Shown here: piece after piece, positions 6,894 to 45,939 of the stretch | How the letters are laid out: each line of letters opens with the position of its first letter | How positions within the stretch are numbered: the stretch's first letter is position 1 | From: Schmidtea polychroa | Lineage: Eukaryota | Direction: 5' to 3' | Assembly: GCA_044892525.1 (NCBI GenBank) | Contig: CM097886.1 | Coordinates: forward strand, 163,668,312 to 163,732,311 | Length of the DNA: 64,000 nucleotides | Notes under the pieces: model-generated | What the model was told of the DNA's origin: nothing | Databases searched by the model: none | What the model saw: the letters and a program-made list of their open reading frames with translations, nothing else | Program-made: the position numbers and the translations under genes

Positions 6894-7659
6894 GGTTACT
6901 TATTATTACCCTTAATTCATGTGTCAGCATCCCTAATTCATTTATGTTATTTTACTTAATTCATGTATTTTATTTTGCTCATTATTATCCGTAATTCATT
7001 TATTCTGGTTCTAATTTGATTATTATCATCTCCCTAATTTTATATTTAAATAATATCAATATTCCTGCTTCAATTAATTCATTAAAACTTAATACCAATA
7101 TGCAAATTATAATGTCTTTGATAATTAACCAAATTATTATTAATCTCATTTCAAAAAACAAGTTATTGATTTTTTTGAATTCCCACGAGCCGATTTCGAC
7201 CAATAAGCGCAGAATAAACCCTCGGTCTAATATTAGTAACATACCCCTTCCCAATATATCCATTGTTGAACTGGAGTAAGTTGAACGAACTACACACACA
7301 CACTCCGAAAACCAGCCAATCATCATGGAATGCAAGGAAACCTCTTTCGTCATGCTAGATAACTGTTGTGCACCCATTAATTTTAGTCATTTTTACTTTT
7401 GTAGTAGACGTTAATATAATGTGATTTTATTTTGATGATATGCTTTAAAGGGAACGGGCTGGTAAAGTGAACCCCCATGCGACCCAACACCTAGTTCAAC
7501 TGATGAAGGGTCGATACAAGTGCTATAATCCTACGACAACGGCGTGGGAAACCCGGAATTATTGACCTTCCCACCCCGATATGATAAATGAAATAAATTG
7601 AGTATCCAACCTCGTAGGATACCATGATGTTTTGTAATCTATTTTTAGTGATCAAACTA

Positions 7660-8073
7660 ATGGAAAATATGCGCCAAGATCGCGAGCAGGCGCGGCAATA
7701 AGTTGAGAAGCTACAAACGAGACTTACAAAGTTTAAGGGACGGTGCCGAGAACTTGAGGGCACATGATTCAGTCCCGTTGAAATGCAGAAACGCCTGAAA
7801 CTGATTCAACAACTACAACTTCAGAATTCCCAGAATCAAACGGAGATCCGAGCTCTCCGCCTTCAAATTCGATAGTTGGAGACATAGTTACATCAAAGGA
7901 CCCTCGACCAAGGAGTAGCTGCCTAAATCCGACCAATGGCGGAGGTATTAACAACCAAATATGCCTCTGAGACACTCACCAAGCCGAAGAAAAAGATCCG
8001 ACCCGACATGTCAGCTCGGACAAGATTAAGGCAAGCGCAGCAGTCGGACGCGCCATTTGCCAGGCCCATTTGA
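7660..8073 (+). pseudogene. Pseudogenised homolog of LTR-encoded ORF-A (28007-28465)
   Basis: Manual translation MENMRQDREQARQ*VEKLQTRLTKFKGRCRELEGT*FSP...EIRALRLQIR*LET*...IRPMA is colinear with MESLRKDREQAQ...KCRKLEGTWFSP...EIRALKLQVRALET...IRPLA; five premature stops. Confidence 0.85.
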
Positions 8074-9329
8074 ACGATTCATATTCGAATGCTCGTTGTG
8101 ACAATTACCATTGTTGTTGAATTAGATATACTTATAATACGAAATTGTTTTTATGCAGAGTATAGTTGCAAATTTGTTTGTTGAGTAGACATGAATTGAG
8201 ATATGGTAAGAAAATAAGATTCGGGAATGCAATCTAGAATAGCGGGACCAGGGAAATCGGACACAGGCCTTCTATCGGCAGTCGGTGGACCCAAGGGAGG
8301 ACTAGACAATTACAGTATATATAGTATGCTCACTTTTTGCTAGTACTCCAACCATTGATAATTTACCAACGTTGACCACTCAAAGAGTATCAAGTGGTCA
8401 AACTTCAATTGTATTCTGGGTTACGCTGGAAACAGCACGACGATGTAAAATGTCAGATTTCCTGTAACCCACCAAATTATTATTTTTGGGTTATTATTGT
8501 TAAAGTCGATACTGATTACGACATCTCGTGCTCTTAAGTCTCAGTTATCAAGATAAAACCCAACACAAAACACTTTATTATATGTCAACAAATTTTGATA
8601 CAAAGTTCTCAATTACATTCTTTGAATTCTACACTCTTTAATAAAAAACGAAGGGAGACCGCTTTATTCAGATTTAGCAATGATTTTATCTTCTTAAAAT
8701 TTGAATTGTATAATCTTCTTACTCTTTAATCACGATATAGTACTTCTCTCTCTTCGACAAACTGGAACTTGCCCAACATTGTGTTCAGATTCGTCTATAT
8801 CATCCAGAGTGCCTTCGTAGGTGTGTATTTTGAAAAATGTTAGTCCACAAAATGGGCTCTTGTCATTTTTTCAATTAGCAACAGAATTTTAAGAGCATTA
8901 CCACCTATTATAATAGCTGGAGATGAATACATAGTTAACAATCTCAACATGAATATTATAATTATTATAGTAGGCTGATTTGAATTCGGGTTTTAGAGGC
9001 GCCAGATATATGAACCGCACAGGGCGCAAAAATGCCTTGTTACGGCCCTGTTTGTAACACATTTATAAAATGTTCTGTTTAAAAGATTTTAAAGGTTTTA
9101 AAAAAGATTTTAAAAGGTTTTAAAGATTTCATGGCACACCTATAAATACTTATCAACACTGTGATGTGCTGCGTTGCATAGTTTGGGAAACGCTCGTTTA
9201 ATGCGCGCTACTGACTCTAAATAAGAGTTTATTGGTATCCTTCTTAAAAGTCCATTTTATTGATAGAATTCAAAAAAATTAATTTATTCTAATTTAATAT
9301 AATTATATATCAAACAAACTATTGTTACA

Positions 9330-19122: not shown

Positions 19123-19415
19123 TGTTAGACGCAATTAAATTCAAGTCTTCTTCAATCATTTATTTTTATAACAACTTCAAAATCGTGCCGTTTACTAGAG
19201 TATTTAAACACCGAGGCGTGATAATTATTAATATTAATGTAATTACTGGTCATACATTTAATTGATTTAATTTAATATAATTTAATATAATATGATATAA
19301 TTTAATATAGAATTTAAATATAAAAATTTAACAGAAATAATTATTTCTACTAACTGATCTCACTTCTACCATTTAACCATAAAAATCTTATATAGAGATT
19401 TACTAACTCCTTACA
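19123..19415 (-). repeat. 3' LTR of the gypsy element; PPT (minus-strand AAAGAAGGGGGA) at 19416-19427
   Basis: 293-bp repeat of 23833-24125 with an adjacent purine tract. Confidence 0.95.
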
Positions 19416-20915: not shown

Positions 20916-21030
20916 TTCATCTCTTTGTGATAATACAGCTCCAATTGTATCAAAGCTTGCGTCTGTATCTAATATGAATTCTTCTTGAAATCTGGAAATA
21001 CGAGAATTGGCGCTGTAGTCAACGCCATTT

Positions 21031-21930
21031 TCATTTCTTCGAAAGCTTTCTCACATTCCAGATTAATTTTTCACTATTGCTTCCACATATGCTTTCTAGC
21101 GCTCTTGATTTTTTTGCATATTCCTTAATAAATCTCCGATAATAGTTACATATACCTAAAAAGCTTCTCAAATTCTTTATACACTTAGGCCTCTGAAATG
21201 ATTTAATAGCCTCAATTTTACTTTGATCTGTCCGAATCCCCTGACTGTTAATAATGTGCCCTAAAAACTTTACTTCGCTCTTTAATAACTGACATTTTTC
21301 TGGGTTGATTCTCAATTTAGCTTCCCGTATTTTCTCTAGAACTTTTTCAAACACATTGTAATGTTCTTCAATTGTTCTTGTAAAAATTAAAATATCGTCT
21401 AAATACACCATAACTCCTTCTTTCCATATATCTTTCAATATTTTTGTCAATAATTCTTGGAATGTACCCGGTGCCGCCGCAATGCCAAAAGGCATTCTAT
21501 TAAAACAAAATTGCCCTTCTTTAGTAGAAAATGCTGTCTTTTCTTGCGATTCTATGTCCAATTTCACTTGATAATAAGCGTTCCCAAGGTCTATAGAACT
21601 AAAGTACTTAGATCCATGTAATGTATCTAGAATTTCTTCTACATTCGGCATAGGAAAAGCTTGTCTTTCAGTAATCTTATTAAGCTGTCTAAAATCTAAA
21701 CAAAGTCTGATATTTTTTTTGTCTTTTTTCCACACGCATACTAACGGCGTATTCCAAGGTGAATTACATCTTCTTATGATATCATTATTTTCTAAATTTT
21801 TTATAACAGCATTTATTTTCTCCTCTAAATTGATGGGTTGCCTTCTGGGTTTTATCATAATTGGCCCTTCTTTTGTGATGATTTTATGTGCAATTAAATC
21901 AGTACATCCGATATCCCAGTTATTAGCCAT
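21031..21930 (-). CDS. pol: Reverse transcriptase fragment, frameshifted from both the protease and RNase H ORFs
   Basis: RLCLDFRQLN, DLGNAYYQV, RMPFGI, YLDDILI, FLGHII. Confidence 0.95.
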   Translation of the reverse strand: MANNWDIGCTDLIAHKIITKEGPIMIKPRRQPINLEEKINAVIKNLENNDIIRRCNSPWNTPLVCVWKKDKKNIRLCLDFRQLNKITERQAFPMPNVEEILDTLHGSKYFSSIDLGNAYYQVKLDIESQEKTAFSTKEGQFCFNRMPFGIAAAPGTFQELLTKILKDIWKEGVMVYLDDILIFTRTIEEHYNVFEKVLEKIREAKLRINPEKCQLLKSEVKFLGHIINSQGIRTDQSKIEAIKSFQRPKCIKNLRSFLGICNYYRRFIKEYAKKSRALESICGSNSEKLIWNVRKLSKK

Positions 21931-22421
21931 AAAACACTTTTATTGTTTTTAACAATCTCTAACAGTCTTTTATTTTCGTTTAATCTTAGAATTTCTATTG
22001 CTTTTTGACATCTCTCGTTATCTGTAATCTTTTCCCCAAATCTAGCTTCTATTTCACACACAAATTCATTATATCCTTCTTCATTCTGCTTGATGTAGTT
22101 TAATTCAATTCCAAACTCTTTCTGCAATTCCACTCCGCCTATTATATCTGGAACAATATTTTTAACTATTATTAATGTTATTTTTCTTTCCATATTACCA
22201 ATTCTAACATCAATATATATTTTTCCGATTGTCTCTAATTTACTATCATTTGCACATCTTAACATCTCATCTGTTTTTATGATTTTCACATTCACTAATT
22301 TGTCCACAACTGCTTCTGCCATTACATTTACTCTTGCTCCTGTATCTAGTAAGCATTCCATTCTATAGCCCTGAATTTCAAGAGTTGTACTCGGTCTACC
22401 TTGCATTTTGTCATAACTCAA
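21894..22421 (-). CDS. pol: Aspartic protease fragment of pol
   Basis: CLLDTGARVNVM active-site motif and IIGG. The frame stays open upstream to about 22630. Confidence 0.9.
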   Translation of the reverse strand: MSYDKMQGRPSTTLEIQGYRMECLLDTGARVNVMAEAVVDKLVNVKIIKTDEMLRCANDSKLETIGKIYIDVRIGNMERKITLIIVKNIVPDIIGGVELQKEFGIELNYIKQNEEGYNEFVCEIEARFGEKITDNERCQKAIEILRLNENKRLLEIVKNNKSVLWLITGISDVLI

Positions 22422-22792
22422 TTTCGGTCGTTTCCATTCATCTTTAGTGAAAATATTTTGCTCCTCTGATATTTCATTAATCCACCCAATTTCCTTTCTC
22501 TCTAATTTATCTTCTGCCTTTTTAATAAATTTATAAACTTTTTCATTTACTATTTTATTATTATATTCTGCTTCTTTAATTTCATTATACTCTTCTTGAT
22601 TCTTAGCATTATTATTATTATTTATTAAAGATCGATCAGCATTAAAATAACTATAACATTTAAAATTATTTAATGGAAACTTTTTAAAATTACAAATTTT
22701 ATTACATAAAGGTTCTACATTATTATATATATAAGGATTATTTACACTATTAAAATTATTATGACCAATATTTACATCAATATCAAAATTAC

Positions 22793-23869
22793 CTAGTATA
22801 TTGCTCCGATCATTGCCTCCCGTGTCGAAGCATGTACTTTTGGGTGCTGAATATCCTCATATTTGTCTTCTGTATCATCTGAATATTCAAGTGGCATCGT
22901 CTCATCATTAGCTTCAATTGCTGCAATTGTTCTTCCTGGATTGTGGATCTTTTGTTGATAGCTTGTGGTTCGATGGGCATAATAATTATTGTTTCTCATG
23001 TTTGAATTAGTTTGAAACTTCCTTCTTTCCAAATTTGTATAGCAGTCAATCTCCTTGTGTCCACGTAAGTGACATCTCTGGCATTGAATCGTTGAACATT
23101 CTCGCCGTACGTGACATTCAACTCCGCATGCAAAACACGTCATTTTCTTTTTCATTTGGCATTCTCGACTAACATGACCAGTTTTCTTGCATGTCCAGCC
23201 TTCCAATTGTCGGTTACTGACGTTTCGCTGCTTGAAATTATTATTTCCGTTTACCATTTCTCTTTGAGCAACATCTCTGTAGCTTCTGTAGTTTTGAACA
23301 ACCGGTGAAGTCTTCACAACATTAATATGGCCCATAATTTTGTTTACCTTTTCTAATTTCTTTATTGTCGCTTTTATTTCTTCTGAAGTTTTCAAATCTT
23401 TCATCTCGATCTCTTTTTTAACTTCTCGATCTCTTACACAGGTTATAAGCAGGCATTTTTCTATTTCTTCTTCATTCCATTTGTGCGCTATTAATTTCTT
23501 TGTCATCTTTTTAATTTTCTCTATAAAAGTTTCGGCTGAATCTGATCCTTGTTCATAAATCAAAGCTTCTTTTAGATCATCCATTAATGATGTCGGTTTC
23601 GAAAATGCATATCGAAGTTTCTCTTCCATAGTTTTTCCTTCGGCTGCTTCATAATCTTCCATTAGCGATCTGTCAAGTAATGTTGTAGTTAATATTACTT
23701 GCATCCTAATTGTTGTTTTTGTCGCGACAAAAAACCTTTGACAATCCTTGATAAAATTTTCTAAATCATCGCCTTTGTGACATTTCTCAGGTAATAGTCT
23801 GCTTATCAATAAATCCGTGGTCGTGGTCGCCATGTTAGACGCAATTAAATTCAAGTCTTCTTCAATCAT
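22793..23869 (-). CDS. gag: Gag with three CCHC knuckles (two degenerate); probable start is the Met at 23833
   Basis: GWTCKKTGHVSREC, CFACGVECHVRREC, CQRCHLRGHKEIDC. Confidence 0.88.
   Translation of the reverse strand: MIEEDLNLIASNMATTTTDLLISRLLPEKCHKGDDLENFIKDCQRFFVATKTTIRMQVILTTTLLDRSLMEDYEAAEGKTMEEKLRYAFSKPTSLMDDLKEALIYEQGSDSAETFIEKIKKMTKKLIAHKWNEEEIEKCLLITCVRDREVKKEIEMKDLKTSEEIKATIKKLEKVNKIMGHINVVKTSPVVQNYRSYRDVAQREMVNGNNNFKQRNVSNRQLEGWTCKKTGHVSRECQMKKKMTCFACGVECHVRRECSTIQCQRCHLRGHKEIDCYTNLERRKFQTNSNMRNNNYYAHRTTSYQQKIHNPGRTIAAIEANDETMPLEYSDDTEDKYEDIQHPKVHASTREAMIGAIY
23822..23832 (-). promoter_or_regulatory. Primer-binding site, probably tRNA-Arg(UCG)
   Basis: TGGCGACCACG directly abuts the 5' LTR end; complementary to tRNA-Arg 3' ends of the ...CGTGGTCGCCA type. 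tRNA identity is from memory. Confidence 0.65.
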
Positions 23870-24125
23870 TTATTTTTATAACAACTTCAAAATTGTGCCG
23901 TTTACTAGAGTATTTAAACACCGAGGCGTGATAATTATTAATATTAATGTAATTACTGGTCATAAATTTAATTGATTTAATTTAATATAATTTAATATAA
24001 TATGATATAATTTAATATAGAATTTAAATATAAAAATTTAACAGAAATAATTATTTCTACTAACTGATCTCACTTCTACCATTTAACCATAAAAATCTTA
24101 TATAGAGATTTACTAACTCCTTACA
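23833..24125 (-). repeat. 5' LTR of the gypsy element
   Basis: Minus strand reads TGTAAGGAG...GCGTCTAACA. Confidence 0.95.
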
Positions 24126-26855: not shown

Positions 26856-28006
26856 GTATGATTTTATTGTGACAGTTTCGTGCATGGATTAAGTGATAAT
26901 CTACATATTAGTTCTTGACAACTGAATGCTCTACTCTTTTGTGTGATAAAGATAAAGAAGTAACTTTGAATGGTACTAACTTAAAATATCAGCCGTATCA
27001 AGATTGTTACAATAAAATCACCAATTATTCAAAATAAAAAATAATAAAACAGCATTAATTAATGCAGAATATAAAAGCGTTTGGGTGCGGAAAAATAAAG
27101 ATATAGCATGTGGGTATTATAGGGGAGTTGTTGTAGTTATAGGAATAGATTTCTCAGAACATATGTCGGAAGAAGATTAATATTATTAAATAAATTCTAT
27201 GTAAATTTCAATTCATCTTTTGAATTTTTATTACACATTTATTTATTGGTTAAAATTCATTTGTTTGATTCAACGTATGAAAAAGTTGTTTTTATCGGTG
27301 AAAATTTCTTGTGCGTTTTTTTGAAAAATTACTCTTAGTCTTTTTAGTGAGAAAAAATTCTTTGAGTTCTTTAGTAGGGAATTTATTTTTGTGATTACTT
27401 ATTGGAAAAAGTTCTTATGATTTTTTATTGAATGAAAATTTAATTATAAAATATTAAAAAATAAACAATAATTAATAACTTCATTTAAACAAAAAATTAA
27501 AATAAAATTTACTTTATTTAAACAAATAAATAAAAACAATTTATTGGGAGGAGTCACCCAGAATCGTGATTTTCAGGGATATTTAACTAGGATTATATTA
27601 TTTGGTGGGTTACTGGTGGTTGAATGTTTATTAGTTAGTGCTGTTGCCAGCGTAACCCAAAATACAACATTGTTTTTCCACTTGGTACCCGTTGAGTAAT
27701 CAACGTTGGTACTGTACCAAGGGTTGAGTACTCGCAAAAAGTGAGCGCATCGAGGCACTATAATTGTCGAGTACTCTATGGGTTCACGGACCACCTTTAG
27801 AAGGTTTGTGTCCGATTTCGTCAGGTCCCTCATCATAATTGTTTTCCCAACCTTATGCACAAACTCTCATTTTCCAGGCAATCATAAACTATACTAGTCA
27901 TTATTTTATCACTACAAAATGTGCATTATTTTAACAAGGAACATATTATTTGAAGACTACAACAATACATAAATATAATACAAAACACCTAAAACCGAAT
28001 ATAAGT

Positions 28007-28465
28007 TCAAACAGGCTTATTGGTAGGACTGGCCAATTCCGTCGTGGTTGCTGGTGACGAATTTGCTTGCCGCTCGTATTCGGCCAGCCTAGCTTTCTTC
28101 AATTTTTCCCGAATATTTCGGCCAAGCCGTTTCCTTTTGGGCTTATTTTCAGCGGCTGGGGGATATATAGTTGCGAGGTCCACAGCCAGTGGCCGTATTT
28201 GTCTTGCTATGGCCCTTTGTACCAACTGCTCATTTTTCTCAGTTTCGAGCGCCCGCACCTGTAGCTTCAGGGCGCGGATCTCCATTTGGTCCTGAGCGGC
28301 CTGCGTTTGCAGCTGGAGGATCTGGGCTGTTTTCTTCTTCATAGCTTCGGGACTAAACCAGGTCCCCTCGAGCTTGCGACATTTTACTTTCAATTTGTCC
28401 ACCCGGACCCGGAGTTCGTCGGCTTGGTGTTGGGCCTGCTCCCGATCCTTGCGTAGACTTTCCAT
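28007..28465 (-). CDS. LTR-encoded ORF-A: 152-aa coiled-coil protein with a basic tail (KPKRKR); function unknown
   Basis: Intact GC-rich ORF inside an AT-rich LTR; has a diverged homolog at 7660-8073. TTTTAG acceptor-like site about 12 nt upstream of the ATG. Confidence 0.7.
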   Translation of the reverse strand: MESLRKDREQAQHQADELRVRVDKLKVKCRKLEGTWFSPEAMKKKTAQILQLQTQAAQDQMEIRALKLQVRALETEKNEQLVQRAIARQIRPLAVDLATIYPPAAENKPKRKRLGRNIREKLKKARLAEYERQANSSPATTTELASPTNKPV

Positions 28466-28836
28466 TAATTTATACACTAAAATGTAAAGAATTTTATTTA
28501 TTTTATACAACAACAAAAAAAATTGGAGTAACAAATGGTAGATTGATTAATCGGTGCTGGTATTTTGCCACTGAGATGCTGTTGTACTTGCTATCTCTAC
28601 CGCGATTAAAAGGAAACGCTACATACGATAATACCCTAGCCTATTTCCATTGTTAATTAAGACCCACTCAAGGAATAGAAGTTTATTATTCAACAACAAA
28701 CGCTAATCATTAATTAAGACATATTCAATGAATAAAAGCTTATTATTTAACAACAAACATTAGTCAAGTTCGATTATCAAGTACGCTACCAACAATAAAT
28801 GAAAATTATTAGAGTAAGTCATATGTCAGCTTGCAA

Positions 28837-29202
28837 TCACGACTGGCGTTTGCGGGGTCTCCCTCTTTTCCGTGGGGATGCCTCGGCCTCTTCTAGCTCT
28901 TCCACGGGCACTCCTTCTCTTTCTGCCCGGATTTGCAACTCGATCTTCTTGAGTCGCATATGAGCGGCTTCCACATCCCAGGCCGCTTGATCTCGGGCCT
29001 CCTGCAACCGGTTATTCTTCGGCTCCACCTTCACCCACGCCGGGGCATCTGCTTCGGGGCCCACCCGGATTACTCGTTCTGCACAATCCAGGTCCCGCCC
29101 CTGACCCCACCGATGTATATGGTACCAGATGTACCGGGTCCGGAGCCGGGTGACCGTCTGCTGGTCAGTACCCTCGTCGTTGCTAACGCTGGATTGAGAC
29201 AT
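28837..29202 (-). CDS. LTR-encoded ORF-B: 121 aa ending in an AT-hook/NLS-like SPRKRGRPRKRQS
   Basis: GC-rich codon block starts at the ATG at 29202, preceded by TTACATTACAG|GC. RGRP is the AT-hook core. Confidence 0.62.
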   Translation of the reverse strand: MSQSSVSNDEGTDQQTVTRLRTRYIWYHIHRWGQGRDLDCAERVIRVGPEADAPAWVKVEPKNNRLQEARDQAAWDVEAAHMRLKKIELQIRAEREGVPVEELEEAEASPRKRGRPRKRQS

Positions 29203-30854
29203 GCCTGTAATGTAAATGTTACAATTTTTATACGGCCAAAGTAACTTATCGAACGGAGCTAAGATACCATGTACCAGGTTATTTAGACTTAATTTACATA
29301 TTAATTCATTTATCAGATTATTACAAGTAGGGGAAATAAGTAACTTAACATTTTGATTTAAATTTATCAATACACCCTTTTACTTTACAACTCATGATTT
29401 ATTAGAATTAACAAACATTCTTCAATCTTAATCTTCCTTGTTTTATCACAGCAATTATCATCAAGGTTAAATAATAATTTTTAAATTATGGTTTTTGTCA
29501 ATATTGATATAGTAAGGTAAATAAGGTAAATTCAAGTACGTAATTTTTATCTTATAAGCTTTTTAATACTAATTTAAGTAATATTAGTTTCTGGTCGAAT
29601 TTTCGAATTAATTACTATCGGTCAATAAACTATTATGGCCCCCAGATGAACAAGGATAGCTTGGCGATTCTAGTGAGGGAATCCAGAAATTCCCATGGTA
29701 AGTGAGACTTCTATAATTTAATACGGTACTAAGTTTTGCTTATTCTGAGGGCAGTTCTACCCACCAATTTCTCCTTATTGGACAAGGCTCACTCACTGAG
29801 CGATATAGGAAATGCAAGTGGCCTCCAAACGTCAGTATACAAAGCATTATGTAAAACATCGAACTAGGCGTGAAACGTGAAGGTCGAGGTCCGGAAAAAA
29901 TCCAAGGTTTCCAACTCTAGGAAATGCATCTCCTCAGGATGATTCTGAAGTCGAGCTCTAAAACTTTGGTATAATTGCGATGCAGAGTGGACTTATGTAA
30001 TTTATTTGATCCACAATCATATGTTTGGAATTTTGTATCTTGTTTTTGATTTGCATATGAATTTTTACCTTCCGGGTAAGTTGGTGAACTATGTTAAATT
30101 TAATGTGGATTTTCGCACTTGCCTTAATTTGAATATGAATTGAATCCTTAATAAGTTATTTTACGTTTAATTTGGAATTTGGTATTTTACTTTGACTCGA
30201 ATACGAGTTTAATCCTCCGGGTAGGTAAATCGAATCATTTTTAATTGGGAATTTTGTATTTTGCTTTGATGTGTATATGAATTTAATCCTTCTGGTGAAC
30301 TAATAAATTATTTTAGCGGGGTGCTTCAATTAATCATATTTATTTTGTCATTCCAACGGCTGTGACCAAGATACCCCAAGGGTGATTTATATTTATTATT
30401 CTTTGAATCTCTATGCCCACACATATACACGTATGTATAGATGTCTGCCTACACACCCACGCAATATCTGCATATATACATGCGCGTACCTATATATAAT
30501 TTAAACTAATACTCTGACGCCGTCTACCTGGGGGGGGGGGTGTTGCTAAAAATAGATTTTAGTGATTTTCCGGGATTTTATTGGTAGATAAGGTTGGGTA
30601 GTTAAATTTAGCAATAGGGGAATTCCAAAGTCAATAATTTGGCTTTAAATTTTATTTTCGGAAGAAATAAGGGAAATTATTTTAATGATATAGGATTACC
30701 AATGAGATCAACAATCATCATGATATTAATAGGTTTAGCAAGGATGACACTAGTAGATAAGACGATGGAAATGATAATAATAATATTAATAGTATTAATA
30801 ATAATAATAATCATGCCAGTATTACATATGGTAATAAGACTAATAATACTCACA

Positions 30855-31154
30855 NNNNNNNNNNNNNNNNNNNNNNNNNNNNNNNNNNNNNNNNNNNNNN
30901 NNNNNNNNNNNNNNNNNNNNNNNNNNNNNNNNNNNNNNNNNNNNNNNNNNNNNNNNNNNNNNNNNNNNNNNNNNNNNNNNNNNNNNNNNNNNNNNNNNNN
31001 NNNNNNNNNNNNNNNNNNNNNNNNNNNNNNNNNNNNNNNNNNNNNNNNNNNNNNNNNNNNNNNNNNNNNNNNNNNNNNNNNNNNNNNNNNNNNNNNNNNN
31101 NNNNNNNNNNNNNNNNNNNNNNNNNNNNNNNNNNNNNNNNNNNNNNNNNNNNNN
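30855..31154. other. Assembly gap (N run) within the microsatellite region of the solo LTR
   Basis: N run flanked by AAT-rich repeats. Confidence 0.99.
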
Positions 31155-34100
31155 GTATAATAGTAATAATGATAATAACAGTAGTAATAGTAAGAAGAAT
31201 AATAGGGTTAATAATAATAATACTAGTAGTATAAGTTTACATTCTATCATTCGAAGTTTGTATTTCCCATTTTAGAGAGTCTGTTTTATGGTTTGGAAAG
31301 TTACTTTTGGTAATTTATAAATTCCCATTTACAAATTTATACTTTGTGATTTCTAATTATATATATTATCGTTCATAATTTAATAATTTACGACTTGATA
31401 TTTTGTATTTTATATTTTATAACATATAAGTTTATGTTATATAATTTAGGGATTTAGAATTTATAATGTATAGTTATATTGTTGTAGTTTATAATTTTAT
31501 ATTTAATAATTCACGATTTCAGGTTTTATACTTTCGGATTTTATATTTTATAAATTGTAATTTTATACTTTATGATTTATGAATTTCTACACGATTTTTT
31601 ATAAGTCACTTTTGTGGGATCATCATAGTTTTCTAGAATGTTTTCAGGTTTGTTGGTAGCTATTCATTAACTATATTCCTGGAGTTCCACATTTATGTAT
31701 AATTAGTTCAAAGAAAATTTCCTATACCCAAAACCTATAATTCCTAATCGGGATTTTCCATTATTGATTTACATCGATATAATTATCTCTAAGATCTTAC
31801 AATATAAAATGGGAACTAAGTATTTACAAATAATTTAAAGTGGGAATTGGATCTAAAATCCCTACATTTACTTTGAATCAAGATATCTAGATTAATTTGT
31901 ACCTGTACATATGCCGAATGACTCTTTTACTTCCATTACTTTATCCACAATTCTATTACAAATACGAAATTTAGTTCGGCATACGTCTAGGTACAATTGA
32001 AATTACCAATTGGATCAACTAGCTACATTAATGTGAGTGCAGATTTGTGTCATTTTAGGTACGAGTTTTACTCAATTTAGAACCTTAGTGTAGATTCATT
32101 GTTCGTGATTTTGAATGTGGATTTTACATATGTATTAACTAAAAGTCGGGAAGAATATTGCTTCCATGGCCCCACTGTGACCACTTCCACAAACCTTAGT
32201 GTTGTGTGCTAAGTCAACCATGTACGGCTGACCTTAAATAGGTACGAAGAGTCAGACGGAGGGTTTCCTCGACCTAACTCCGTGGCAGAACCACGAAGTA
32301 GTTCGACCTCCGAAGGACCCGAACAAACGAAATCGTATAGTATCGATCAATATAGTACGAATAATGCATGTTGGTAGGTGGCATAAAAATTTTATTCGAT
32401 ATCCTCAAATGCAGGACGGAATAGCGACGCACAGTGACGCCGCTGATCAGTCATATTTTTCTAAATAACAACGAATTTAGTAAGAATAATTTAATTATAG
32501 AATGGTATTCATTAAAATAGTTACATACATGGTTAACATAAAAACAATGCAATCAAAAAAAAATACCTACTATCAGTTTCCTTCAAAATTTGGTCAACAA
32601 AAAATTTTGGCATAAATGACTAAATCATGTCCGAAACGTGTCGGTATATATACCTATTTTGTACACGTGTATGTATTGATACAGTAAAACAAACTCGAAT
32701 TCTTTTTATTCCAGAATTTTCTATTTTACGATTTTGCTATTTTTAATGGCGATTTTTGTGCCATAATTTTTGTTTTTATTTTTATATTTTTATTTTTTAA
32801 TTATTTTTCGTTAATTTGCCGTCCATGATGGATTTGGAACGGTTCCAGAACATTCTATTTTATTTTTAATACAATTTTTATTTTAACTGATGTTTTATGA
32901 ATTTCTTTTTAAGATTTTTTTTTATTTTTAATACTAATTTATTTATTTTCTCTAACTTTTATTGTTCTAAATGGGTTTTGTGATGGTCATCGCCATTTTT
33001 ATGGAATGTTCTGGGTTTTTCTGGAATTTTTTACTGTTTTTACTGTCTTTTAGGTTATTCGAGTCTGTTTTTGTTTATCTGTGTTTATTTGGTTATTTTC
33101 AAGTTCTATTTTGCATAACCTCTTGCTTTTGGTATAATTTTATTTAATTTCTGTGTTTAGGTTTTTGTTGTTTCTTCCTTTAACTACTATTGTTTATTTG
33201 GTGTAGTTTTAATATTTAGCTATACTTCTTGCTTTTGCATGTTGGTCATAATTAGAAGTTTGGGTCTAGAAATCAGTTCTAGCCCAACATATTCATGTTC
33301 CAATACTTATTTGTGTTTCTATTTTATTTTTTTTCATCAAAATTATTTTTCTTTCTCTTTATTGTATTTGCAAATAATTTATGATGGTTGTCCATAATTT
33401 TTGTCTTTATTTCAAACAGTTGTGTTTATTTTTCAATATATAAATTTATTATACATGATTCACTTACTGTCTATAATATGTAAAACATTTTTAACTTGAA
33501 TATCCAGAATTAAATAACCAAGAGGGGTAAGAAACATGTTATTTTACCTCTGACATGGCATCTCATTTAAATTGTTTAAACCTAAAATTACAGGGGCCAG
33601 GTTAAACAGTAAATATTATACTAGAATTAGTGCTTTCTTTCAAAAGACATTTGGAGTTATGTGCAACAGACATGAAAAATGGTAACCAAATTCATTTTGA
33701 AACATACAAAATTATAGAGAAGCAAAGGCAAACTTCAATTGATACAAAGTTCTTTGAAACAACTATAAAATAAATGGAAAATTCTTTAGAAATCGGTTTA
33801 ATTATTTCAAAACTGAAAAGACAACGTTTAAATTTAAAAATATGAAATAACAATTAATAAAAATTACAAATTTATTAACTAAAAAGTAATACTTTGTAAT
33901 ATTGTCAGTGGGCGGTGATTTGGAATAGATGTGATACTGATATTTGGAAGAACAATTGCCTGAGAAGAAACAAAGTAAACAATAGGTTTATCTATAACTG
34001 TAAAGGTTTTAGAATTGATTACGACACAACACGTTACTAATTGAGGTGCAGGATTCGATAAAGAATCTTGAGCTAAAAGTTTCTCCGATTAATCTTCGAA

Positions 34101-34801: not shown

Positions 34802-34884
<83 letters not shown>

Positions 34885-35330
34885 CAATAGAATGATAATT
34901 TAAGACTTTTGCTGCAAATAATGTATTTAATGAAAGAATTTTCGACTGTAAGATAGTCCTTGTCAATCTCCAAATAATTTTTTTTGAGGAGATTGACAAG
35001 GACTATCTTATAGTCGAAAATTCTTTCATTAAATACATTATTTGCAGCTAAAGGCTTAATTTATCATTTTTTTGTTTTAAATAATAAATGCTGCNNNNNN
35101 NNNNNNNNNNNNNNNNNNNNNNNNNNNNNNNNNNNNNNNNNNNNNNNNNNNNNNNNNNNNNNNNNNNNNNNNNNNNNNNNNNNNNNNNNNNNNNNNNNNN
35201 NNNNNNNNNNNNNNNNNNNNNNNNNNNNNNNNNNNNAAACAAAGATGATAACAATTTAATTATAAAGTGCCACTTAAACATTTGCTTTACGATATATTTC
35301 AACTGTCTCCGTGTCATCGTCAAATAGAAT
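34700..35330. repeat. Fold-back (palindromic) element with an (AAT)n microsatellite; contains N gap 35095-35236
   Basis: Near-perfect stem about 34905-34971 / 34987-35052 with a 15-nt loop. Diverged outer arms at about 34705-34795 and 35240-35325. Confidence 0.7.
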
Positions 35331-35606: not shown

Positions 35607-37496
35607 TTAGGTAAAGAAGTAGTCAATTTCTTCCTGTTGTCGAATTTCGTCCAAATTTACTTCTTCACGCTGTACTAATCGTTGTAATGGCTCAGAGCGA
35701 TAGACGACCTTTCTACCTTTCATGTATCTTGGTGGTAAATTAAATGATTCAATGGCTTTCTGTAATCTTTCTGCTCGTGTTTCCTTGTTTAGTTTATTCA
35801 AACGTGCACGATTAGCTTGTCTTTTGCGTTCATCGAGTCGTTTTTTAGTTTGAATAAGAGTCTTTTTGTCATATTTTTGAAGATCCACATACAAATAATC
35901 AACGAGACTTTCTATTCGTTTAAGCATGTCAATAGGTCCTCTTTCATCAGAATCTTGTTCGTCAAAAATACAAAAGTAAAGAACAATTATCTGTTCAATG
36001 ACATATTCAAATAATTCATCTAAATTCGATTTTTTGAAACCTTCCAAACAAAAGAAAGCTTTGTATCTTTCAATTGTATAAAATTTGTCCAGCGAAGAAA
36101 ATTTTTCTTCGAGATATTCAATGGAACTTTCTATTATGTCGATTTTGCTATTTTCCACCTGAATGATCTCATTAATATCATTTGTCTGTTTATTCATTTC
36201 CGTTTTGATGTCAAGCATTTTCTTTTTTATAAGATCACACATTTCTTCTTGTTCCTGTACGTTTTCAATTAGGCTCAGGTTTTTTATTTCCAAATTAGTA
36301 AAAATGGCCGCCAAATCCATCGGATCATGAAGCATTTCGTTTTGAGAGGATTTAAACGAATCTTCAGTAAACTCCAAATCATCTAAGGAACTTTTTGAAT
36401 CTCTGGGAGAATCCTTTTTTATATAGGAACATTCTTTTTTACTACTAAAATCTGATAGAATCAATAATTTTAGATCTTCTAATTTGTCTTTAGTAAAGGT
36501 GTAAAATTGTGGAAATGAGTTTGAAAAATTTTCGAAGGTATAATTATTGTTTTTTATAGTGATGGACGTTTTTACAATTTCTTCTGATTCTTCGTCTGAA
36601 CTATATACCATCTGAAACTCTTGTCTCTCAAATTCTTTTAATTGTGTAGAAAGAGTCTTTTCATTCGTCAAGCTAAATTTCGGACCAATATCATCAATAT
36701 CTCGGTTATGGAAGCTTTTTATTAAAAATAATTTTAGATTTCTTAAACTTTCCAACTCTTCTTCCAATTGGATACATTCAGAATTAAGTTTCGAAGAAAT
36801 AAATTTAGCCCTTTTCAACTTTTTGATCACCTTTTCCTTTCTAAACACCTGCGCGTCTGCCCGCCTTATGATTTTGTACGTTCTTTGACAAACAGATTTC
36901 AAATACACTTCATTTTCTTTTTTTTCCTTCTCCAGTAGTTCCTCTTCGTTTCTTAAGAACTTTTCTTCATTCTTAATTAATTCGTCAAGTCTAGCGATAT
37001 TTTTCTGTGTAATTTTTCCCGCCAAATCTAATAAACAGACTTCTCGCTTTGAGATAATAAAATCATAATTTGGAACAGTTTCAAATTTATGAGCCGGTTT
37101 TAAAGGAGGCGGGTCGTCATTATTTGCTTCAGCCAATTCTTTACGATTTAATATGTATTGAAAGTTTTTAAGAGAATATTTGGCGTTGAATTTTATTCTC
37201 GTATCTCGGTTAACGTTTTCAGTGACTGAATAATTTCGAATCTTGTTTCGATTGAAGATTTTTCGTTGCTGCTCTAAGTCTTTCAGTTCGTTAGTATGCT
37301 TATATTGAGTGGCCATAAACGGGTTTTCATTGCAGAATGGCTCGGTCAAATATCCAGGAACTATTGGTTTCTCTAAGGTTGAGGTTTTGTCGGCAGGTTT
37401 GATCCGACCAAATTCCAGAATATCATTCTCAAATTTTGAAATTGTAGGAAAATTGACATTTATTCCAAATGTTCCAATTTTTGGTTTTCTAAACAT
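35607..37496 (-). CDS. CFAP100: CFAP100/CCDC38-family paralog 2, single ORF of 629 aa
   Basis: KREVCLLDLA, DPMDLAAIFTNLEIKNLSLIENVQEQEEMC, GRKVVYRS and terminal YFFT; colinear with paralog 1. Confidence 0.8.
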   Translation of the reverse strand: MFRKPKIGTFGINVNFPTISKFENDILEFGRIKPADKTSTLEKPIVPGYLTEPFCNENPFMATQYKHTNELKDLEQQRKIFNRNKIRNYSVTENVNRDTRIKFNAKYSLKNFQYILNRKELAEANNDDPPPLKPAHKFETVPNYDFIISKREVCLLDLAGKITQKNIARLDELIKNEEKFLRNEEELLEKEKKENEVYLKSVCQRTYKIIRRADAQVFRKEKVIKKLKRAKFISSKLNSECIQLEEELESLRNLKLFLIKSFHNRDIDDIGPKFSLTNEKTLSTQLKEFERQEFQMVYSSDEESEEIVKTSITIKNNNYTFENFSNSFPQFYTFTKDKLEDLKLLILSDFSSKKECSYIKKDSPRDSKSSLDDLEFTEDSFKSSQNEMLHDPMDLAAIFTNLEIKNLSLIENVQEQEEMCDLIKKKMLDIKTEMNKQTNDINEIIQVENSKIDIIESSIEYLEEKFSSLDKFYTIERYKAFFCLEGFKKSNLDELFEYVIEQIIVLYFCIFDEQDSDERGPIDMLKRIESLVDYLYVDLQKYDKKTLIQTKKRLDERKRQANRARLNKLNKETRAERLQKAIESFNLPPRYMKGRKVVYRSEPLQRLVQREEVNLDEIRQQEEIDYFFT

Positions 37497-40816: not shown

Positions 40817-43800
40817 TGTTGGGCTAGAACTGATTTCTAAACCCAAAGTTAGGAATGGGACGAAATGTGTCAGTACACAACACGCATACCCAGCATTAAG
40901 TTTACTTAAATAAAAATATATAAAACACCAAGTAAACAATGATAATAGAGAGATAATATACCCAAAAATAAAACATCTGAATTAAAAATAAAATAAAACA
41001 CGAGCAAGAAGTATTACACGAAAACTTACTCAAATATAACCGAAAGACATAAAACAACAAAAAACAAATTCGAATAAAGGCAATTAGTAAAAATTAAAAA
41101 AAGAAAATTAAAGAAAATCTTCATAAAATCTTACGTAAAGAAAATTATATCGATATTTTGAATAAAAATCCAGAACAATTCATAAAAATGGCGAAATCCA
41201 TCATGACGGCCAAACGACCCAATAAAATTTATAAAAAATAAATATTTTAGTTTAAAAAATAAATATTTTAGAAAAGAAATCATAAAAAACAATTTAAAAA
41301 TAAGAAATAGATTAAATTTAGCATGGAATGTTCTGGAAATGCTGAAATCCATCATGGAGGCAAATTTAATAAAAAATAATTCGAAAATAAAATTTCAAAA
41401 ATAAAAACAAAAATTCTTACTGAAAAATCGCCATTAAAATCGATAAAAATTAAAAATCGAATGTTCGAGAATTAAAATAATTCGAATTTGTTTTACTGCA
41501 TCAATGCACGCATGTATACTTACACGTCAAACAGAGGCTATATAAACTAACACATTTCGTCACTTTGAAAGGAAGGAAAAAATGCAAATGAATATTTTTA
41601 CTCTTATGCCAAATTTTTGGTTTTGATTTTTCTGAGATTGTAGGTAAGGACGATTTCATTGTGAATTATAAATTATTATTATTGAAACCTTGTTTTCATT
41701 ATTTCTTTTTAACTATAGAAATGTAGGTTTGAGTGAGATCGTCGGTTATCATTGATTTTGAAGCGAGATCCCAGCCAACCCTGCACCTATGCACTTTATC
41801 ATCGATGAGTAAACAGCCTACAATGATTGCAGGCCACTGCCTGGCACGCACTTATCAATATTATTGGGTTTTTTTTTTGTTTGTTCAGGTCATTCGGAGG
41901 TCGCACCACTTCATGGTTCTGCCATGGAGTTAAGTCGATGAAATCCTCCGTCTGACTCTACCTATTTATTATAGGTCAGCCGTAAAGGGTTGACTTACCA
42001 CACAACAGTAAGGTTTGTCGTAGTGGTCACAGTGGGGCCGCGAAAGCAAACACTCTTCCCGACTTTCAATACATGAATAACTTACATAGTTAAAATCTAC
42101 ATCCAAAATCATCACAATACAATACACTAAGGTTAATAAACAGAGTAGATCTCAGACCTAAATTAATCACAACTCTACAATTCACAATTAATGTAGACGG
42201 TTAAATATCATCAAGAACCCACTCTACCTATACGTTTGTCGAATCTAGATTCATGAATGTCTTAAATAAATTTTTTTAGTAATAGTGTAAAGCAAAGATT
42301 TTTAAAGATGATTAATTTAGTAGTGATAGTATTCATAAAGGTGTTCGACATGCGCATCAGCAAGACTTGGATTTTAAATTGAATAGACTCTAAACTAACT
42401 ATAAAAATACCAATCGTAAACCCATAAAAGTATAAACTATCCTCTCAATTTCATAAAAATATGAATTATACTTATAGATTCAATTTCTTCAAAATATAAA
42501 TTATGATTAGTTATAAAAGTATAAATTATAAATTTAATTTCCTAAGAATATAAATTACAAATCTATATTGACGGTAAAATTATAAATTATAACTCTAAGT
42601 TAATTACAAAAGTATAAATTATAAAATTATATTAGCCTTAGAACATAAACTATAAATTTAACTTAACCTCATAAAAATATAAATTATAAACTTAAAAGTA
42701 TAAATTATAAAGTTATATTAGCTTTAAAAATATAAATTATAACCTTAACTTCATAAAAATATAAATTATAAAATTATATTGGCTTTAAAATATAAACCAT
42801 AAATTTAACTTCATAAAAATATAAATTATAAACTTAAAAATATAAATTATAAAATTATATTAGCTTTAGAAATATAAACTATGAATTGAACTTCACCAAA
42901 TATAAATTATAAACTTAAAAATATAAATTATAAAATTATATTAGCTTTAAAATATAAACCATAAAATTAGCTTCATAAAAATATAAATTATAAACTTAAA
43001 AATATAAATTATAAAATTATATTAGCTTTAGAAATATAAACTATAAATTGAACTTCACCAAATATAAATTATAAACTTAAAAGTATAAATTATAAAATTA
43101 TATTAGCTTTAAAATATAAACTATAAATTTAACTTAACTTAGATTGCCTTTAACATCATAGTTGAAAATTTTTCATCAAAGACCCCCCATAAACCATATA
43201 GTCATCAACTACCACCTAAATATACTAAATTAGCTTATCTTAATATACATTTAACTTATATTATATTTAAAACTATAAATTGTAAATTTTTATGAATGAC
43301 CCCCCTCAAAATCATACAGTCATTACCCATTACCTAAGCATACTAAATTGACTTATTTTTAATATATATTTAACTTACATTATAATAAAAAATATAAGTT
43401 GTAAAATTTCATGAATGACCCCCCTCAAAATCATACAGTCATTACCCATTATCTAAGCATACTAAATTGACTTATTTTTAATATATATTTAACTTACATT
43501 ATAATAAAAAATATAAGTTGTAAAATTTCATGAATGACCCCCTCAAAATTATACAGTCATTACCCATTACCTAAGTATTTTAAATTAACTTATCTTAATA
43601 TATATTTAACTTATATTATATTTTAAAATATAAATTGAAAATTTTCATAAATGACCCCCCTTCAAATCATGTAGCCATTAACTATTCCTTAGGTACACTA
43701 AATTATATCATCTTCGTATAGAGTTAAATTATATTTCAAATCAAACCAAAAAATAAATAATTCCATAATTTTCGCAAAAGATACTCCCATATGTGGGAAT

Positions 43801-45939
43801 CTTGTAAAAAAATAAACTTACATTTATTATTATTATTAACATTATTATTATTATCGTTATTAATATTATTATTATTATTATTACTATTATTATTATTATT
43901 AGTATTATTACCATTAACATTACCACTCTTATCATTATTATTACTATTATCATTACTATTATTATTATATTATTAAAATAATTATCTTTATTTCAAAAAA
44001 TAAAATTATAAAACCGATTATTGATTTTGGGATTCCCCTATCTCTAAATTTAGTCTCAATGGCCCTATCTTCCAATAAAGTTACGGAAAATCACTAAAAT
44101 CTATTTTTAGTAACACCCCCCCCGGAAAACGACATCAATATTATTAATTTAAATTATATCCATATATAGGTATGTGTGTATATGTATATGTATATATATA
44201 TGTGTGTGTATATATATGTGTGTGTGTGTATGTACATACAGATTTATAAAGCAACCTTATAAAAATACGATAACCTTCCCCCTCAAGACCCCTGTTATGT
44301 GATGGTCACAACCCCCTTAAGGTGATGGAGCGAGGTTAGAGTAGTTTACTGAAGTAATTTAGTAGAATCATTTATTGATTTATTAGAATTATTGGATTTA
44401 TTTTTAACTAAATCAAAAGAGACTAAATTTATTTTTAACTAGATCAAAAAAAAAGAAAAACAAAGACTAAGTTTATTGATTTCGATCATCAACTTTATTC
44501 ATATAATTGTTTCTTTGAATCATAGTTATACCAAGGTCCTTCGAGCACGGTTGATGGACCATCCCAATGAAATACATTTCCTGGAGTTGGAAGACTTCTG
44601 GATAATTCCTTATTTTCTGCTTCGTTCCTTTTGGTTCAATGACTTACATATTGATTTGACGTAATATTGTTGGATGGCCAACTATATTCCTTGCATCTCT
44701 TTTTGAGTAGTCATTGTCAGATAATTCCGCCAGGAAGATTAGTTGGTGGAACTGACCTTGGGGCAATCAAACCTTCGTACCTCACTGAATTATTATCAAC
44801 TCGATTGCTAAGGAAATTAATGAAGTTAATTAATTAAATTAAGGAAGTTAATTACAATTTTCTCATTGGTGTTGTCAAATGATCTTTGCTCATTCGAGAT
44901 GTCATAATACATTATTGATCAATAGTAATTGTTCGGAGATTCGGCCAAATGCTGATATTCCTGAAATATTATGAAATTTTAGGATATAAATGCTTAAAAT
45001 TTTAATTTATTTACATTATTATATCAAAGTTAACTAAAATCATATATTTATTCAAAATTTGTTATTTAACATTAATTATAATTACTATAATAAAACAACG
45101 AAAATTTAAATAATGTTAAATAACTTTAACAAAACAAAAAGTAATAATGAAATCAAAATTCCATTACTTTATTTAAATTATTAGTTACCAACTTGTTCTA
45201 GTATTTTAACCTAATGAATTCAAGTATATTACGGAGTTAGTTTGGTCGTTTGAGGAATATTATAAATTGAAAATTTAAGTAGATTAGAATTATTTACTCT
45301 TCATAAGAACTTTTATGATTGTAATGAATCTAAACTTCATATATTAATATTACCCATAATTTACAAGTGATATTTGGATTATGTTAAAATAGGTTGTAAG
45401 TTAACTTAACTAAATTGAAATTTTCTTTTGATCAGGTTATCGTGGGGAATGCATGTTATCTTTATCATTTCTATTGTTTCAGTTTATTAAGTTTTTTTTT
45501 TATTTTCTAATTAAATTCATTAGTCTCAAAAATTTCTTGAGGTTTGTTTAATAAACTATGGTTATGTTTCACTTAATTTATATTCAAACATTTTAGATGT
45601 GGTGTTGTATGAACAGGCTTTAATAGAGTAATGTATGATTCCTGATGACTTATGATCGTTTGAGGATAGAAAGTTTGTATAGGCATAGTTGAGGAAGTGA
45701 TTATAATAAGGGACCTGCGTAAATCGGACATACATCTTCTAACGATAGTCCGTGAACCCATTAGAGTGCTCGACAATTACAGTGCAAGTAGTGCGCTCAC
45801 TTTTTGCGAGTACTCACCGTCTTGATACAGTACCAACGTTGATCGTTCAACGGGTATCAAGCGGTAAACAATGTTGTATCTTGGGTTACGCTGGTAACAG
45901 CACTAAAGAGCAAAATATTTGATCATCAGTAACCCACCA
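40817..45939 (+). repeat. 5' LTR (5,123 bp)
   Basis: TGTTGGG...CCCACCA. Contains an AT minisatellite (about 42430-43130), about five 119-bp units (about 43140-43740), (ATT)n and (TA/TG)n tracts. Confidence 0.96.

Follow-up and report, generated by a model that had tools for sequence, protein, structure and literature searches.

This account concerns a stretch of 64,000 nucleotides (nt) from Schmidtea polychroa (assembly GCA_044892525.1, contig CM097886.1, positions 163,668,312 to 163,732,311 of the forward strand), here called the window, and in particular a solo long terminal repeat (LTR) of a giant Gypsy element that carries two open reading frames (ORFs), ORF-A and ORF-B. The LTR starts with TGTTGGG and ends with CCCACCA, is bounded on both sides by the 4-bp target-site duplication (TSD) AATA, and has neither an internal region nor a primer-binding site (PBS) behind it, so that it has every mark of a solo LTR; it matches both LTRs of full or tandem copies at 78-95%. 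Both ORFs are open, lie in the sense of the LTR within its last 1.6 kb and, at 53% (ORF-A) and 60% (ORF-B) GC against 29% for the spacer, stand out in composition, much as a first-pass annotation of the bare sequence had proposed.

That annotation also noticed an acceptor-like site ahead of each ORF, and these are as it described them: the AG is at 29206-29205 for ORF-B (TTACATTACAG followed by GC and then ATG) and at 28478-28477 for ORF-A (ATTTTAG followed by TG...ATG). The ATTTTAG-type site is retained before a decayed ORF-A copy at 7660 (47% identity over 112 amino acids, aa). Read from its own ATG, ORF-A extends from 28465 to 28007 on the minus strand (152 aa), and it was this ATG that had been named as its start; the acceptor and the TG behind it stand, and the TG itself, four codons earlier, is now the likeliest start. 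For ORF-B the RGRP-type C-terminus had been recognized, with the protein taken to end in RKRGRPRKR rather than, as it does, in RKRGRPRKRQS. The LTR at 40817 had been reported as shorter and lacking both ORFs. Their absence was borne out (tblastn, and a profile search with no match below E 0.3), and the shortfall is slightly larger than the 0.9 kb first estimated, the interval between shared anchors being 562 nt there and 1,561 nt in the window solo LTR, a difference of about 1.0 kb.

Features of the solo LTR and of the two LTRs compared with it (positions in the window)
Feature	Position	Strand	Remarks
Solo LTR, 5,687 bp, Burro/GYPSM1-like Gypsy	27603..33289	minus	TG..CA ends; colinear with the 40817 LTR
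TSD AATA, downstream copy	27599..27602	minus	
TSD AATA, upstream copy	33290..33293	minus	
TATA box, conserved; predicted promoter	32644..32652	minus	~640-720 nt from the LTR start; shared by both LTR clades and by the family without ORF-A and ORF-B
Predicted leader exon, ending in A	32571..32617	minus	start inferred from initiator-like TCATTT ~35 nt past TATA
Predicted splice donor GTAGGT	32565..32570	minus	GTRAG/GTAGG in relatives
Structured RNA block, conserved	32141..32325	minus	inside predicted intron; candidate export/packaging element
AT-rich tandem and AAT/ATT arrays	30770..31580	minus	in predicted intron; 30855-31154 is N
Predicted ORF-B acceptor TTACATTACAG	29205..29215	minus	
ORF-B, 121 aa	28837..29202	minus	
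AT-hook-like motif PRKRGRPRKRQ	28843..28875	minus	aa 110-120 of ORF-B
Predicted ORF-A acceptor ATTTTAG	28477..28483	minus	
ORF-A exon	28007..28476	minus	TG (completing predicted splice-made ATG), Y-K-L, 152 aa
Structured RNA block, conserved	27640..27830	minus	3' end of the LTR
Decayed older LTR end	7647..8474	plus	acceptor TAG-TG and broken ORF-A homologue at 7660
Comparison LTR, 5,123 bp	40817..45939	plus	young family without pol, ORF-A or ORF-B

From what kind of element does such an LTR come? In a full copy (G000:C1 84.75-84.79 Mb) each LTR contains both ORFs, the 3' LTR being 5,722 bp long, and the internal sequence is 25.6 kb. The 4,709-aa polyprotein ORF of this copy has Pfam matches to zinc knuckle, MATH, fusion glycoprotein, protease, reverse transcriptase, RNase H, integrase and ankyrin domains, and among its side ORFs are RING, TRAF/MATH and BIR-RING proteins. 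The fusion glycoprotein (PF24664, E 5.5e-69) is between MATH and protease, that is between gag and pol. The passages available from PMC6431247 describe the Burro/GYPSM1 elements of planarians as over 30 kb in total, with internal regions of up to ~25 kb, multi-kb LTRs, BIR/RING cargo and a polyprotein of ~4,700-4,900 aa in which gag, MATH and an in-frame fusion glycoprotein are followed by protease, reverse transcriptase, RNase H, integrase and ankyrin. Since the full copy fits this description in length, in its single polyprotein of Gypsy order, in its gag-pol fusion glycoprotein and in its MATH/ankyrin/BIR/RING cargo, the element carrying the LTR genes is by description a Burro/GYPSM1-like giant Gypsy of a family already known. 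The BCL2-like, SUMO-like and dUTPase-like motifs of Burro, some of them detected by HHpred only according to the same passages (PMC6431247), are absent from the Pfam matches at E<=0.01 in the full copy, HHpred not having been run. Among five multi-LTR regions examined there were this full element, another full one with a broken polyprotein, and three tandem duplications around solo or truncated copies. Elsewhere there are tandem arrays of 29-kb units (G000:C2 133.0-133.12 Mb) and of 15.8-kb units (G000:C1 39.42-39.47 Mb), each unit with an LTR bearing ORF-A and ORF-B. In three elements (the internal region of L039-L043) some 100 open codons, none of them Met, precede in frame the first ATG of gag-pol; a non-AUG start or a further splice may account for how the polyprotein is initiated.

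Selection on the two genes, and a family that has lost them

The genome of origin holds at least 150 copies of each ORF (first-look candidates numbered 6,502 for ORF-A and 2,601 for ORF-B), and of the 150 best matches 133 (ORF-A) and 138 (ORF-B) are free of stops. The acceptor-start pattern of ORF-A, YAGTGTAYAARYTRATGGARAA, has 242 exact matches in the genome versus 0 for its reversed control. Ratios of nonsynonymous to synonymous substitution (dN/dS) were obtained from gap-free full-length copies only, 60 for ORF-A and 42 for ORF-B with broken copies left out, and the representatives were natural copies less than 93% identical to each other. For ORF-A dN is 0.065 and dS 0.76, a ratio of 0.09 (20 representatives; 176 of 190 pairs unsaturated); for ORF-B dN is 0.156 and dS 0.98, a ratio of 0.16 (12 representatives). 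Third codon positions are the most variable in both. The four off-register frames have ratios of 0.9-2.9 and 2-7 stops per copy, and the in-register antisense frame mirrors the sense one, at 0.16 and 0.27, but with stops. To remove the bias of choosing loci by protein score, ORF-A was also assessed in 20 loci picked by ORF-B (14 full-length), giving 0.07, and ORF-B in 20 picked by ORF-A (8 full-length), giving 0.19. Constraint on ORF-B reaches its own stop, all four segments tested being under selection. The first-pass proposal that these are protein-coding genes, along with the check on dN/dS that it suggested, has thus held up well, the values being far below 1 and specific to the frame: comparison of copies makes it almost certain that ORF-A and ORF-B encode proteins under purifying selection.

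At which level does that selection operate? In the closest pairs dN/dS rises (0.011/0.027 for ORF-A, 0.014/0.019 for ORF-B), and older LTR copies are broken. Among changes private to single copies in one young subfamily of 22, the corresponding polymorphism ratio pN/pS is 0.88 for ORF-B (28 non-synonymous or stop changes versus 9 synonymous) and 0.41 for ORF-A, this second value being biased because the set was picked by ORF-A score. Selection acts on replicating lineages, and given these two values copies appear to decay after insertion. The suggestion that solo LTRs could still express the genes survives in part: every predicted expression signal is intact in the window solo LTR and expression from solo LTRs is possible, while nothing indicates that the host maintains the solo-LTR copies.

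The 40817 LTR belongs to a 21-kb element (40817-61904) with identical 5,123-bp LTRs, the TSD CCCT and a tRNA-Pro-like PBS; its coding content is gag, an ORF of 1,060 aa and a decayed RING ORF, with no pol, and the family to which it belongs is non-autonomous, very young and present in many copies. In that 16-kb family, which is without ORF-A and ORF-B, identity is 98-100% and 16-kb pairs are many among the 40 matches scored per query. Its LTR has kept the TATA box, the donor and both structured RNA blocks; its leader ORF contains stops, and the base before the donor is not A. When 33 LTR ends are placed in a tree, the end of this family nests among LTRs that bear ORF-A and ORF-B, and the loss is therefore derived. 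Since a young family could lose the genes and nevertheless spread, an element has no need of them in cis, which suggests that they act in trans.

A distant LTR clade, reached through the copy at 7660, has an ORF-B homologue at 20 of 20 loci and an ORF-A homologue at 19 of the 20, in the same order (one of these loci, L140, scored best on a near-clade copy). The distant homologues are 43% (ORF-A) and 37% (ORF-B) identical to those of the near clade and share their order, acceptors and C-terminal RGRP. Loci L145-L150 (G000:C3 86.52-86.575 Mb), when set against L039-L043, have a polyprotein 93-97% identical and other side ORFs 84-99% identical, with ORF-A and ORF-B at only 43% and 37%, and L133 pairs a distant-clade ORF-B with a near-clade ORF-A. 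That mixed pair argues that LTR modules recombine, and divergent ORF-A and ORF-B on nearly identical bodies mean LTR swapping, fast change, or both.

A predicted leader, donor and two acceptors

Between subfamilies, similarity begins at the YAG of the acceptors, what lies upstream being AT-rich and indel-rich. For ORF-A the YAG is present in 47 of 48 distinct contexts and the next two bases are TG in all 48. From there to the ATG the bases vary as codons do (Y/F/I-K-L behind the invariant TG), and the ATG itself is not conserved: six intact copies have TGY instead, and before the next Met pN is 0.05 versus a pS of 0.24. In the distant clade the start reads YAG-TG and then L-K-L-L-E. An invariant TG at codon positions 2-3 fits only Met, and it is predicted on that ground that the leader spliced to this acceptor ends in A. 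For ORF-B, YAG is found in 34 of 36 distinct contexts, followed by two free bases and ATG.

A donor that could supply such a leader is ~75-85 nt past the conserved TATA box near LTR position 650. Among the 48 promoters found, 43 have the leader ATG motif and the donor, and in the 31 distinct, if related, leaders the last base is A in 30, the exception being the LTR without ORF-A and ORF-B, while positions -2 and -3 vary. The distance from leader ATG to donor is 34, 37, 40 or 43 nt (phase 1) in 29 of the 31; in the window this cap-proximal ATG is at 32613, in frame with both ORFs. The acceptors, then, are conserved where the sequence upstream of them is not, which agrees with the first-pass splicing proposal, and a matching conserved donor is present within the same LTR. 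Neither the 3' block of the LTR nor the sequence behind the PBS yielded a TATA box or donor that all elements share, and the only conserved TATA-donor unit is the one 3.4-4.1 kb upstream of the ORFs. We considered a short intron immediately ahead of ORF-B and dropped it, the GTAAGT-like site ~45 nt upstream not being conserved. Further into the full element, six of seven internal accessory ORFs have a YAG 0-3 nt before their ATG, versus 9-13% of all ATGs, so that the element seems to have at least nine ORFs fed by acceptors, with ORF-A and ORF-B at the head of the series. Splicing of an LTR transcript from leader to acceptor is accordingly a prediction in which we have high confidence, and that the start codon of ORF-A is made by the splice (A-TG) is probable, if somewhat less secure.

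Both RNA blocks have signs of conserved structure. That at 32141-32325 folds with z -2.6 in the sense and -0.75 in the antisense orientation, with double-sided changes at 4 of 45 consensus pairs (17 representatives); for that at 27640-27830 z is -3.6, with such changes at 9 of 48 pairs (22 representatives). Neither belongs to an Rfam family, the two Rfam matches being at chance level, and the window has no tRNAs.

The proteins and what they may do

The model of ORF-A (pLDDT 83, pTM 0.37) has two long helices (2-39 and 42-103) and, past a linker, a basic one (118-138), and a basic motif K[KR]x[KR] occurs in 18 of 20 sequences. ORF-B has an acidic, Ser-containing N-terminus, a conserved RLR(T/S)R(Y/W)IW helix, a coiled helix and a C-terminal motif resembling an AT-hook or a nuclear localization signal (NLS); in its model (pLDDT 68, pTM 0.31) two helices, the second of them coiled, are followed by a disordered tail with RGRP. 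RLR(T/S)R(Y/W)IW, P-K-x-E-P and RKRGRP are retained across clades. Of 26 aligned ORF-B proteins, 23 have retained the AT-hook core RGRP that had been pointed out at first pass, and 20 have it as [KR]RGRP[RK][KR]; against Pfam AT_hook (PF02178) the window ORF-B has E 0.31, 16 of 26 members have E<=1 and the best has 0.0041. The tail could be just an NLS. A complex prediction for the two proteins together scored 0.32 versus a mark of 0.34, which is no answer and is used neither way.

On balance the explanation we favour, at somewhat better than even odds, is that ORF-A and ORF-B are LTR-internal genes, likely spliced from a leader at the LTR's own promoter, and likely regulators acting in trans in the nucleus. 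Transcription would start ~35 nt past the TATA box, near LTR position 670. If the leader of ~47 nt, ending in A, were joined to the ORF-B acceptor, that A would become the -3 base of the ORF-B ATG; if joined instead to the ORF-A acceptor, it would complete A-TG as the start codon of ORF-A. The same leader could also be joined further downstream, to the acceptors before the RING ORF and the 3' accessory ORFs, and unspliced genomic RNA would retain the intron with its structured RNA block. That the two proteins are nuclear trans-regulators is, taken alone, also somewhat better than an even proposition. Their exact roles are more doubtful, those that follow being less likely than not. ORF-B, with a dimer-type helix and terminal AT-hook/NLS, might bind AT-rich DNA or chromatin at the LTR and promote transcription; ORF-A, with an oligomerising coiled coil and a basic helix, might like Rev, Rem or CERV control export or splicing of genomic RNA. 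A role of the latter type is favoured for ORF-A because genomic RNA that retains an intron needs help with nuclear exit, as in Cer1.

Several observations weigh against this explanation. The RNA check was of contigs from four runs of two studies, only guessed to be RNA, and although these contain parts of ORF-B and/or ORF-A from several subfamilies, no spliced junction of the kind that the first-pass annotation had looked to reads for was seen in them, loose ends being 30 letters and short of the ORF-B acceptor; one X1 contig crosses the ORF-A acceptor unspliced, X6 contigs retain the acceptor, and X1 depth tracks the profile of a DNA run. No retrocopy of an intron-less ORF-A was found, the three pattern matches being AG-to-AA point mutants and the distant clade yielding 0. 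The leader counts come from related copies, which are not independent, and the control without ORF-A and ORF-B is one family. No AATAAA is conserved at the LTR end, poly(A)-type hexamers past the stops being common but at unfixed positions, and a 5-kb R/U5 (the repeat and unique 5' parts of the LTR) could work only if strong-stop DNA were very long and poly(A) sites were suppressed. Given the leader's own in-frame ATG, the N-termini may be other than predicted. As for the proteins, a nuclear-export-signal-like pattern (one pattern class) is present in only 10 of 20 ORF-A sequences, and the AT_hook match of the window ORF-B has 11.5 bits, below the Pfam curated cut-off of 17.4. Among proteins of near length neither has a homologue at E<=0.01, and the ORF-A alignment has no match at E<=0.01 among longer ones; an ORF-B profile run against 1.84 billion representatives had 1 match, to a multi-AT-hook protein and by the motif only. 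No PDB sequence match, and no Pfam match at E<=0.1 to either ORF, was obtained; the Atlas provided no usable match for ORF-B and none at 0.9 for ORF-A. Neither a viral fold match for the ORF-A model nor a PDB fold match for that of ORF-B was found, searches that say little with both models mostly plain helices.

How do other explanations compare? That the GC-rich frames arose by chance, or came with a small element inserted separately into the LTR, might seem to be in keeping with the lack of outside homologues and with one LTR family being without the block. However, it is refuted by frame-specific dN/dS of 0.07-0.19, the ORFs have a fixed place in two distant LTR clades, the absence is a derived loss, alleles of the two assort between LTRs (L133), and the distance from the ORF-A ATG to the LTR end stays at 827-872 nt in the 30 loci that yielded the end motif; so separate insertion, which the first-pass annotation had allowed for, and chance can together be given a negligible probability. 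Domestication, with solo-LTR copies kept by the host as its own genes, is very improbable too. There are hundreds of open copies, the signals predicted in the window one are intact, and the private pN/pS of ORF-A is low, but this low value is biased by the choice of top matches, and the near-neutral private ratio of ORF-B, the rise in dN/dS among closest pairs and the broken state of older copies all go the other way. It would be a different matter if, with genes and splicing unchanged, the LTR had a very long U3 (unique 3' region), with the 5' TATA box driving accessory mRNAs only and genomic RNA starting near the 3' block, a layout like that of sag. No 5-kb strong-stop DNA would then be needed, the 3' block is highly conserved and structured, the tails past ORF-A are UGUA-rich and AU-rich, and in mouse mammary tumour virus (MMTV) Sag is expressed from a large LTR by way of a separate promoter and donor (PMC9143442, as excerpted). 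Yet the 3' block has no conserved TATA box and no common donor follows the PBS despite the acceptors of the internal ORFs, the family lacking both genes keeps the 5' TATA box and donor, and a strand-specific structured block is just past that TATA box; we regard the long-U3 layout as unlikely.

Comparably unlikely is translation from the leader ATG, which would give ORF-A and ORF-B 11-14 extra codons in common, or feeding of ORF-A by some other coding exon, for instance part of ORF-B; the ATG at the junction would then be no more than an internal methionine. The phase of the leader ATG with the donor in 29 of 31 leaders, the 3-nt steps in leader length and its being in frame with both ORFs speak for such a start, but in one subfamily (L055, L057, L059) the leader ORF is interrupted by a stop and ORF-A and ORF-B are nevertheless full-length, the leader peptide is conserved at M-P only, and the ATG, which has T at -3, comes ~4 nt after the inferred cap; as to another exon, ORF-B is selected to its own stop and no ORF-B-to-ORF-A joint is listed at the ORF-A acceptor in the contigs. 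The main rival where function is concerned accepts the splicing and has the two proteins directed at the host, either as anti-silencing factors (against PIWI-interacting RNAs or heterochromatin) or as cell-fate effectors, which would accord with the BIR, RING and TRAF cargo. Identities of 43% and 37% alongside a polyprotein of 93-97% are as expected from conflict, or from LTR swapping, and Burro is a target of PIWI in planarians in the text available from PMC8532177. But both genes are under strong purifying selection within clades, LTR swapping by recombination accounts for the divergence with no need of conflict, and protein and fold searches gave no similarity to a known antagonist. A host-directed role is thus an improbable alternative, a shade less so than the long U3 or the leader start, and the one that spliced nuclear regulation has chiefly to contend with.

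Other features of the window may be mentioned briefly. The intervals 19123-24125 and 4445-6893 hold a small Gypsy element of ordinary type, whose LTRs are 293 bp long, together with an inverted partial copy that has taken the place expected for ORF-B in the old 7660 LTR. Long intronless ORFs for coiled coils, three in number and all of one kind, are at 9330-11318, 35607-37496 and 62405-63991, the two that were scanned both matching DUF4200; an intronless eIF4G-like ORF is at 15940-17859, and a 92-nt inverted repeat with a 16-nt spacer (34880-35079) adjoins an AAT microsatellite.

Precedents and meaning

Coding sequence in LTRs is not without parallel. In human immunodeficiency virus (HIV) nef overlaps U3, and AT-hook proteins of the HMGA type are familiar. 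ORF-B resembles the latter in its RGRP core and basic flanks, kept across clades only 37% identical, and differs in that its protein is helical and has one hook only, placed C-terminally and, in the window copy, under the Pfam cut-off. The splice-made start codon attributed to insect gypsy env may be a precedent for that predicted for ORF-A. The first-pass comparison with MMTV sag (PMC9143442, in part) and HIV nef is apt in that coding sequence in an LTR is reached by splicing, Sag by way of an internal promoter and a donor in env; it is less so in that here the LTR itself contains both ORFs along with the promoter, donor and acceptors predicted for them, the ORFs being predicted to lie downstream of the start site, in an R/U5-like position that sag and nef do not share. 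With all predicted signals and ORFs inside it, a solo LTR would be a complete cassette. Another parallel is CERV of the Caenorhabditis elegans Gypsy element Cer1, which in the passages available from PMC10309623 is a spliced product with a leucine zipper and NLS, needed for export of a genomic RNA that contains splice sites; the likeness is of a lineage-specific accessory protein in a Gypsy element with a tRNA-Pro-type PBS. The anatomy of Rev, Rem and CERV can be made out in the model of ORF-A (long helices over 2-103 and the basic helix at 118-138), though it is generic, and ORF-A has no sequence or fold homology to a known factor of that type. Plant LTR retrotransposons (Ogre, Grande, Retand) have extra ORFs conserved family-wide without outside homologues (PMC7264820, as excerpted), and in both respects ORF-A and ORF-B are similar. 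Accessory ORFs and LTR-overlapping genes, then, have precedents in the excerpts of PMC7264820, PMC9143442 and PMC10309623. The Burro passages of PMC6431247 deal with accessory ORFs and polyprotein domains and in them there are no LTR genes, leader-plus-acceptor plan or splice-made start; nor did the literature searched yield a report of genes inside Burro LTRs, though Grohme 2018, its supplement, Repbase or a review figure may show them.

LTRs are usually taken as non-coding ends, and solo LTRs as dead with respect to protein; here a metazoan Gypsy LTR has two genes under selection. For the giant Burro elements there is now a concrete expression plan to consider, one leader and many acceptors in the manner of complex retroviruses, with predicted junctions placed to the nucleotide (32571 to 29204 or to 28476), a natural deletion family as control and two small candidate regulators in a tractable animal amenable to RNAi. 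It has a bearing on the nuclear exit of retroelement RNA that contains introns and on element activity under PIWI control. More speculatively, and with no great likelihood, the Burro LTR may be a self-contained, swappable cassette of promoter, leader, alternative acceptors and two regulator genes, one of them with a start codon made by the splice, hundreds of solo LTRs providing AT-hook and Rev-like factors in trans that families without pol parasitise. Were that so, divergent alleles of ORF-A and ORF-B would define specificity groups of regulator and LTR, or escape from PIWI silencing.

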